Of a stretch of DNA of 64,000 nt, positions 47,108-47,250 are shown piece after piece. The translations under genes and the position numbers were made by a program. The stretch's first letter is position 1; every line of letters begins with the position of its first letter. The notes beneath the pieces are model-generated. The model was not told the origin of the DNA, ran no database searches, and was given only the letters and a program-made list of their open reading frames with translations. The DNA lies in NCBI RefSeq assembly GCF_013315695.1, contig NZ_CP054353.1; one strand, 5' to 3'. Source of the stretch: Escherichia coli (GTDB lineage Bacteria; Pseudomonadota; Gammaproteobacteria; Enterobacterales; Enterobacteriaceae).

Positions 47108-47124
47108 AATTGGCCCTACCAATT
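47108..47124. promoter_or_regulatory. candidate LldR operator (AATTGGccctaCCAATT) upstream of lldP
   Basis: Perfect 6-5-6 inverted repeat in the lldP upstream region; GntR/FadR-type operator architecture. Confidence 0.45.
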
Positions 47125-47233
47125 CTTCGCTTATCTGACCTCTGGTTCACAATTCCCCAATTAAAACTCACATCAATGTTGCTAACACATAACATTTAGT
47201 TAACTATCCATTGTCATTATCCCTACACAACAC

Positions 47234-47250
47234 AATTGGCAGTGCCACTT
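47234..47250. promoter_or_regulatory. second candidate LldR operator (AATTGGcagtgCCActT)
   Basis: Same palindrome with one mismatch, about 70 bp upstream of the lldP ATG. Confidence 0.4.

Follow-up and report, generated by a model that had tools for sequence, protein, structure and literature searches.

What are the two similar palindromes that lie in the spacer between a trimeric autotransporter adhesin gene and the lactate permease gene lldP in Escherichia coli, and does the adhesin gene next to them affect the control of the lactate operon? These questions are addressed here for a 64-kb stretch of E. coli DNA (hereinafter, the window) and for the corresponding loci in complete genomes of E. 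coli and other bacteria. Given their match to published sites, we are highly confident that the palindromes are the LldR-bound operators of the lldPRD promoter in E. coli, known as O1 and O2, with a DNA loop between them that we infer. The operators are already known, being the characterized LldR sites of lldPRD; they were mapped in 2008 and found again by genomic SELEX in 2023, and finding them in the window carries little weight as a discovery. O1 and O2 parts have been used to build lactate biosensors. The practical value of the comparison is in annotation: the regulatory model developed for strain K-12 applies unchanged to strains that carry the adhesin gene, K-12 itself has the deleted form of the lld locus, and a conserved terminator would insulate the adhesin gene from the lld promoter. 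The question of whether LldR forms a loop belongs to the published system rather than to this particular window.

The lld operon and its surroundings

Table 1. Coordinates of the genes and regulatory features around the lldPRD promoter (positions in the window)
Feature	Position	Strand	Basis or remarks
yibL	39827-40189		mapped RefSeq annotation
IS1	~40872-41569		mapped RefSeq annotation
Truncated DUF3251 gene	41589-41981		RefSeq: incomplete, N-terminus missing
Trimeric autotransporter adhesin gene, UpaG/EhaG type, 1666 aa	42025-47025	+	Pfam ESPR, YadA_head, YadA_stalk, YadA_anchor
Intrinsic-terminator-like hairpin and TTTTCTTT tract	47049-47086	+	terminator scan, RNA fold, inverted repeat
LldR operator O1, AATTGGCCCTACCAATT	47108-47124	.	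high-affinity; for lactate activation and repression; also PdhR box
Core lldPRD promoter region (putative)	47177-47213	+	TTGCTA -35-like hexamer 47180-47185
ArcA-like box, GTTAACTAAATGTTA	47190-47204	-	overlaps the -10 region
LldR operator O2, AATTGGCAGTGCCACTT	47234-47250	.	weaker; downstream of the transcription start; required for repression
lldP, L-lactate permease, first gene of the operon	47323-48978	+	RefSeq mapping; Pfam Lactate_perm 784 bits
lldR, GntR/FadR-family regulator of O1/O2	48978-49754	+	NCBIfam LldR equivalog; Pfam GntR and FCD
lldD, L-lactate dehydrogenase, last gene of the operon	49751-50941	+	RefSeq mapping

The gene layout of the window (Table 1) is the RefSeq annotation of strain MSB1_4I mapped onto the list of open reading frames; the segment 46950-47400 is 100% identical to that strain and has a match in 5420 of the 5426 complete E. 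coli genomes. The regulator is encoded within the operon: the lldR product scores 498 bits against the NCBIfam equivalog model NF007741 (cut-off, 311 bits) and is 98.8% identical to LldR of K-12, and LldD, over the part compared, shares 99.5% identity with its K-12 counterpart. The next gene after lldD is trmL. On the other side, the spacer between the adhesin gene and lldP, 297 bp long, contains both O1 and O2; RefSeq gives homologues of the adhesin the names YadA-like family protein, ehaG or upaG.

Several smaller features of this region were noted along the way. A 17-codon upstream ORF (47273-47326), the ATG of which directly abuts an AAGGAG motif, has a stop that overlaps the start codon of lldP in the sequence ATGA. 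This ORF is not conserved outside Escherichia and is broken in Kluyvera and Silvania; it was set aside and, judging from this pattern, is probably non-functional. A conserved small palindrome, ATGAG-N7-CTCAT, is located within the same interval. Finally, the contig CALXDF010000207.1, labelled as part of an uncultured Oscillospiraceae bin, encodes an LldP 99.8% identical to that of the window and also carries the adhesin gene and both operators; by its sequence, this is almost certainly a mis-binned E. coli contig.

Identity of the palindromes with the published LldR operators

O1 is a perfect palindrome (6+5+6), and O2 is a palindrome with one arm mismatch. The distance between them is 126 bp, both start to start and centre to centre, which amounts to 12.0 turns at 10.5 bp per turn, so that the two sites that bracket the promoter lie on the same face of the helix. 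O1 starts 215 bp and O2 starts 89 bp 5' of the lldP ATG (47323), exactly as in K-12. With the threshold set at one mismatch or fewer, the motif AATTGG-N5-CCAATT has no matches in the 64-kb window other than O1 and O2; shuffled windows yield 0.33 matches on average, and 4 of the 100 shuffles get as far as two matches. At two or fewer mismatches, the motif is not enriched in the window (3 matches found vs 3.72 expected), so that the statistical argument draws on how close the two matches are to perfect, on their lying next to each other and on their being conserved.

The same sequences have been described in K-12. In the genomic SELEX analysis of Anzai et al. 2023 (PMC10272880), the yibL/lldP spacer gave the strongest LldR peak, and the LldR boxes assigned to this spacer (Table 1 of that paper) are AAtTGGcCctACCAaTT and AAgTGGcactgCCAaTT, in agreement with the two sites of Aguilera 2008. 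O1 is identical to the first of these boxes letter for letter, and the reverse complement of O2, AAGTGGCACTGCCAATT, is the second box, AAgTGGcactgCCAaTT. Counted by hand against the LldR-box consensus AAnTGGTCnGACCAnTT, O1 agrees in 12 and O2 in 10 of the 14 positions, the same values as published. Binding of K-12 LldR was demonstrated by gel shift along with genomic SELEX, and lactate induction was lost in an lldR mutant (PMC10272880). The 17-mer of O1, AATTGGCCCTACCAATT, was also quoted as needed for LldR binding by San Martin et al. 2013 (PMC3582500) and occurs verbatim in three open papers (PMC10272880, PMC3582500 and PMC7660256).

The preliminary description of this DNA, based on the letters alone, had named two palindromes at 47108-47124 and 47234-47250, about 126 bp apart, as candidate LldR operators of the lldP promoter and had called for a comparison with published LldR footprints. 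Both palindromes are present at these positions, and the two 17-mers coincide with the K-12 boxes of PMC10272880 and PMC3582500, which bears out the assignment. The postulated regulator of the GntR/FadR type is accounted for by lldR, the product of which matches NF007741 and has the GntR and FCD domains. The accompanying remark that the spacing would allow DNA looping by such a regulator agrees with the model in the literature, where the loop itself is only proposed.

The promoter and its proposed mode of regulation

A scan of the region between the operators found no consensus sigma-70 promoter, which is consistent with an activator-dependent promoter. In the abstract of Aguilera 2008, the transcription start is reportedly set 110 nt ahead of the ATG, with O1 spanning -105 to -89 and O2 spanning +22 to +38. 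Counted from the ATG at 47323, these values would put the start at 47213 and let O1 cover 47108-47124 and O2 cover 47234-47250, an exact fit to the palindromes. The start is, then, presumably close to 47213, provided that the distance of 110 nt holds. The box that overlaps the -10 region has a single mismatch to the ArcA consensus; it is the only such match in the window, with 0.05 expected, and is the likely site of anaerobic repression.

Published work places the two LldR sites on either side of the transcription start (PMC3424551) and assigns the -35, the -10 and the ArcA site to the interval that O1 and O2 enclose, 'from +1 to -80' (PMC8689689); ArcA represses lldPRD, with its operator located between O1 and O2 (PMC8689689, PMC2634741). 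The promoter core of the window differs slightly from that of K-12: within 47180-47208, the -35-like hexamer is TTGCTA vs TTGCCA, and beside the -10 region, the window has AACTATCC vs AACCATTC in K-12. Only 2 of 5419 genomes have an O1-O2 block that is at least 99% identical to that of the window.

According to the literature, from which binding and the dual role of LldR are taken here, LldR bound on both sides of the start represses transcription, whereas lactate-bound LldR at the upstream site activates it (PMC3424551, PMC5412874). Repression depends on the distance and the angular orientation of the operators, as summarized from the original work in PMC8689689, and this dependence has been read as DNA looping; PMC10272880, PMC8689689, PMC5412874 and PMC3424551 are cited for a model in which LldR loops the DNA between operators separated by some 126 bp. 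Since every element and distance in the window is the same as in K-12, the published model transfers directly to the window. Without lactate, LldR dimers would occupy both operators, of which O1 lies approximately 97 bp before and O2 approximately 30 bp after the point where transcription starts, and the two operators together would repress, probably through an association that loops the 126 bp (12 turns) holding the promoter. In the presence of L- or D-lactate, the repression via O2 would be relieved, and LldR at O1 would activate transcription. ArcA would add anaerobic repression at the box over the -10 region, and PdhR, which would also use O1, would add pyruvate-linked repression.

Conservation of the operator pair

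The 161-bp O1-O2 block is present as a single, chromosomal copy in 5419 of the 5426 complete E. coli genomes (at least 90% identity), and no indel is found from O1 to the lldP ATG among seven aligned E. coli sequences, one of which is a K-12 derivative. Beyond E. coli, a scan of one genome per species for an O1-N{100,120}-O2-like pattern, which allowed spacings of 117-137 bp, recovered 94 loci, compared with fewer than one expected by chance according to a rough calculation. The same two boxes were detected in E. coli, E. albertii, E. whittamii and two further Escherichia species. Kluyvera, Silvania and another enterobacterium have the boxes AATTGGCCCAACCAATT and AATTGGCAGGGCCA(C/A)TT upstream of lldP-lldR-lldD, and Pantoea has a further box variant upstream of lldP. 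The spacing of the boxes is 125-126 bp in all of these, from Escherichia, Kluyvera and Silvania to Pantoea, and eight enterobacterial sequences compared in detail keep to this range; more distant two-box promoters linked to lldP have spacings of 117, 121 and 124 bp.

Across Escherichia, Kluyvera and Silvania, 16 of the 17 columns of O1, 15 of the 17 columns of O2 and 14 of the 15 columns of the ArcA-like box are invariant, although the scan pattern fixes the palindrome arms and so accounts in part for their invariance from genus to genus. The pattern puts no such constraint on the centres of the boxes, on the ArcA-like box or on the spacing. When the window is compared with the three non-Escherichia sequences, identity reaches 94% in O1, 92% in O2 and 93% in the ArcA-like box vs 42-59% in the stretches before O1 and in the first 65 bp after O1 (these block-conservation figures leave out Pantoea, which was misaligned). 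Salmonella was not recovered by the scan with exact palindrome arms; the sadA-lldP synteny in this genus is taken as background, to which the Rfam consensus discussed below lends indirect support.

The adhesin gene as a neighbour of the lld promoter

The operators had been described initially as lying 'now' downstream of the adhesin, in a locus altered by an adhesin insertion. The genome comparison speaks against this view. The 3' end of the adhesin gene together with the promoter is covered in 4150 of the 5426 complete E. coli genomes (~76%), so that the adhesin gene is the majority neighbour, and it is located immediately upstream of lldP also in E. albertii and in Escherichia sp. E1V33. A strain-specific insertion was, accordingly, considered and rejected, given this distribution of the junction and the deletions in K-12 and E. 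whittamii. Judging from these genomes, the adhesin gene is a common and ancestral neighbour of the lld promoter.

The state of the locus in K-12 can be traced by alignment with the window: homology ends one base past the yibL stop (40190) and resumes at 47047, just before the terminator-like hairpin, and the 95 intervening K-12 bases correspond to the distal REP element found behind the adhesin gene in other strains. By this comparison, K-12 is a deletion derivative that lacks the adhesin region and has kept the REP element on its 3' side along with the terminator hairpin, O1 and O2. The loss in K-12 (locus L001, 2905-3000) starts one base beyond the yibL stop and extends into the REP region. 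In E. whittamii (L086, ~8117-8336), a remnant of the adhesin gene is fused to the 3' half of the hairpin, and O1 and O2 are kept. As far as can be told from the junctions, the adhesin deletions in K-12 and E. whittamii are different and independent. On its 5' side, the adhesin gene of the window is immediately preceded by the truncated DUF3251 gene, with IS1 directly upstream of the latter, which implies that the native upstream region of the adhesin gene is disrupted in this strain; a Pfam search with the 136-aa ORF 41571-41981 gave no match, so that the DUF3251 label comes from RefSeq alone.

The segment between the adhesin stop codon and the hairpin (47026-47048) is 23 nt long in the window and contains no REP-like elements. 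In most E. coli and in E. albertii, one or two REP/BIME-like elements of 70-130 bp occupy this position, and Escherichia sp. E1V33 has the same REP-less junction as the window. In some strains, the 10-mer CTAAGGGCAA flanks the REP block on both sides. A deletion between these CTAAGGGCAA repeats was considered as a possible source of the REP-less junction; given the same form in E1V33, the change may have gone in either direction.

The hairpin itself (47049-47078) consists of a 13-bp stem with 6 GC pairs and a 4-nt loop, followed by TTTTCTTT up to 47086; the centroid fold has an energy of -20.9 kcal/mol (z = -3.8). As a prediction, this structure qualifies as a Rho-independent terminator, with a GC-rich hairpin followed by a U-tract on the transcribed strand, and the terminator scan yielded no other candidate in the adhesin-lldP spacer. 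All seven aligned E. coli sequences, that of K-12 among them, have the hairpin, which differs by a few substitutions in two of the strains. A strong predicted intrinsic terminator separates the adhesin gene from the lld promoter. The terminator had been placed about 26 bp before O1, which is a fair estimate, with 29 bp between the stem and O1 and 21 bp between the T-run and O1. In K-12, the hairpin is located downstream of yibL, at the same distance from O1 as in the window; the same hairpin precedes O1 in K-12, and the published LldR regulation was, therefore, already measured in that local context.

Alternative explanations

A DNA loop formed by LldR is a proposal, and we know of no direct observation of such a loop. 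It is conceivable, though in our judgment doubtful, that O1 and O2 work independently, with O2 acting as a downstream roadblock to RNA polymerase, O1 acting as a class-I-type activator site, and the 126-bp spacing being a by-product of the position of each site relative to the promoter. The lack of proximal repression and of distal-proximal synergy in a reporter screen with LldR sites on lacUV5 (PMC7804116) would be expected under such independence, but in that screen the promoter was foreign, the spacings were short and LldR was present at chromosomal levels. The distant lldP-linked pairs, at 117, 121 and 124 bp, are not all in phase, which also suits independent sites. Removal of 10 bp between O1 and -35 left sensing unaffected, and removal of 10 bp between -10 and O2 abolished induction (PMC8689689), as could be the case if each operator acted on its own; a 10-bp deletion, however, keeps the helical phase and so provides no argument against looping. 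Looping, in turn, is favoured by the distance- and angle-dependence of repression, as summarized in the same source, and by the retention of the 125-126 bp spacing in Escherichia, Kluyvera, Silvania and Pantoea despite the divergence of the intervening sequence. In a hupAB mutant, lldP is derepressed approximately 50-fold (PMC2634741), which would fit a loop assisted by HU. Another reading concerns the protein at O1, which might be mainly an operator for pyruvate-responsive repression by PdhR and not an LldR site; this we regard as improbable. Among the SELEX targets of PdhR listed by Anzai et al. 2020 (PMC7660256) is the yibL/lldP spacer, in which the O1 17-mer is given as a PdhR box, AATTGGccctACCAATT (13 of 14 positions shared with the PdhR consensus); in the same work, the level of lldPRD mRNA was 3.3-fold higher when pdhR was mutated. 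Moreover, LldR is a close paralogue of PdhR, and the boxes of the two proteins are almost the same. Nevertheless, the strongest LldR SELEX peak is found here, and it is the lldR mutant that loses lactate induction (PMC10272880). A role of PdhR at O1 does not exclude that of LldR and complements the assignment of O1 and O2 to LldR. In the work of Aguilera 2008, PdhR reportedly had no effect on an lldP fusion.

The remaining alternatives concern transcription across the spacer. Read-through from the adhesin gene might cross O1 and the promoter and perturb lld regulation, such that an adhesin insertion would alter the control of the lactate operon. O1 does start only 29 bp after the hairpin stem, and with the REP elements absent in this strain, the hairpin is the sole barrier, but this scenario is very unlikely: the predicted terminator is strong (the 13-bp stem, -20.9 kcal/mol and U-rich tail described above), K-12 has the same hairpin at the same distance from O1 downstream of yibL, and the adhesin gene is not an insertion but a common and, by the genomes compared, ancestral neighbour. 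An extension of the same idea, which we consider highly improbable and mention as a speculation, is that the loss of the REP elements would let residual adhesin read-through cross O1 and displace LldR or PdhR, coupling the expression of the adhesin and the lactate operon and that, more generally, paired FadR-type boxes 12-13 turns apart, as in enterobacterial lldP and Vibrionaceae pdhR, would mark a widespread looping mode. On the opposite strand, the Rfam model RF02055 (STnc380, a Salmonella sRNA candidate) matches 47040-47149 of the minus strand over its full length, with 28.9 bits and an E-value of about 0.001, and the two helices of the model are exactly the O1 palindrome and the terminator hairpin. 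These could, in principle, be the stem-loops of a minus-strand antisense sRNA homologous to STnc380, but we find this scarcely credible, given that the score is far under the gathering score of 60, which leaves the match outside the family, that no U-tract follows the hairpin on the minus strand and that the O1 'helix' is fully explained by a protein-binding palindrome; the O1 arms never vary and, accordingly, provide no covariation in favour of RNA pairing. A literature search for STnc380 returned nothing other than STnc3800, which is a different RNA. We read the match as a segment with the hairpin and O1 that is conserved in Salmonella and not as an RNA gene in the window, and the RF02055 family itself may represent a protein operator and a terminator rather than an sRNA.

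Comparison with other regulatory systems

Paired palindromes of this type are not confined to lld operons. The E. coli pdhR promoter is not known to carry more than one such box. The palindrome type of pdhR-aceEF-lpd and the other PdhR targets is the same as that of O1, AATTGGT...ACCAATT, and O1 is itself listed among these targets (PMC7660256), but the effector of PdhR is pyruvate, not lactate. Two perfect AATTGG-N5-CCAATT palindromes, 133-137 bp apart, are found at pdhR-aceE of Vibrionaceae, beside a gene for a regulator of the FadR subfamily; compared with lldP, the regulator is PdhR, the target is pdhR-aceE, and the spacing is one turn longer. In one such locus (L013, 5446-5599), the family models identify the regulator as the PdhR equivalog (427 bits) and the neighbouring gene as aceE. 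Besides this locus, AATTGGT..ACCAATT pairs next to an LldR paralogue were observed at approximately 50 other loci of Vibrionaceae (L008, L016 and L025 among them), in Vibrio, Aliivibrio and Salinivibrio. Paenibacillus, which belongs to a different phylum, has two AATTGG(A/G)T(C/G)A(C/T)CCAATT palindromes 125-127 bp apart (L014, 4184-4326; L019, L040, L048, L068 and L073), a spacing close to that of O1 and O2 in lldP; these pairs lie beside a GntR regulator of the FadR subfamily and, in L014, adjoin a large gene for a secreted esterase-like protein.

LldR of Pseudomonas (PMC6731338) and that of Corynebacterium likewise recognize palindromes of the GntR/FadR type at promoters of lactate utilization genes, for example, AATTGGTA-T-TACCAATT. 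These systems differ from the E. coli one: their only operator lies downstream of the transcription start, and they act through repression alone, without an activating site of the O1 type.

The classical looping repressors, LacI with O1/O3, GalR with OE/OI and HU, and AraC, resemble lldP in that the promoter is enclosed by a pair of operators separated by a whole number of helical turns. Further points in common with lldP are the reported dependence of repression on phase and the strong dependence of lldP on HU. LldR differs from these repressors in that the lacUV5 reporter screen did not detect a loop for it and in that, in addition to repressing, it activates from O1.

Finally, lldPRD of K-12 shares with the window both 17-mers and their spacing of 126 bp. 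The hairpin upstream, the ArcA-like box and the distance to the ATG are the same as well, and LldR is nearly identical. The two sequences differ by a 1-bp indel immediately ahead of O1 and by a few substitutions in the stretch from O1 to O2; the upstream neighbour is yibL in K-12 and the adhesin gene in the window.
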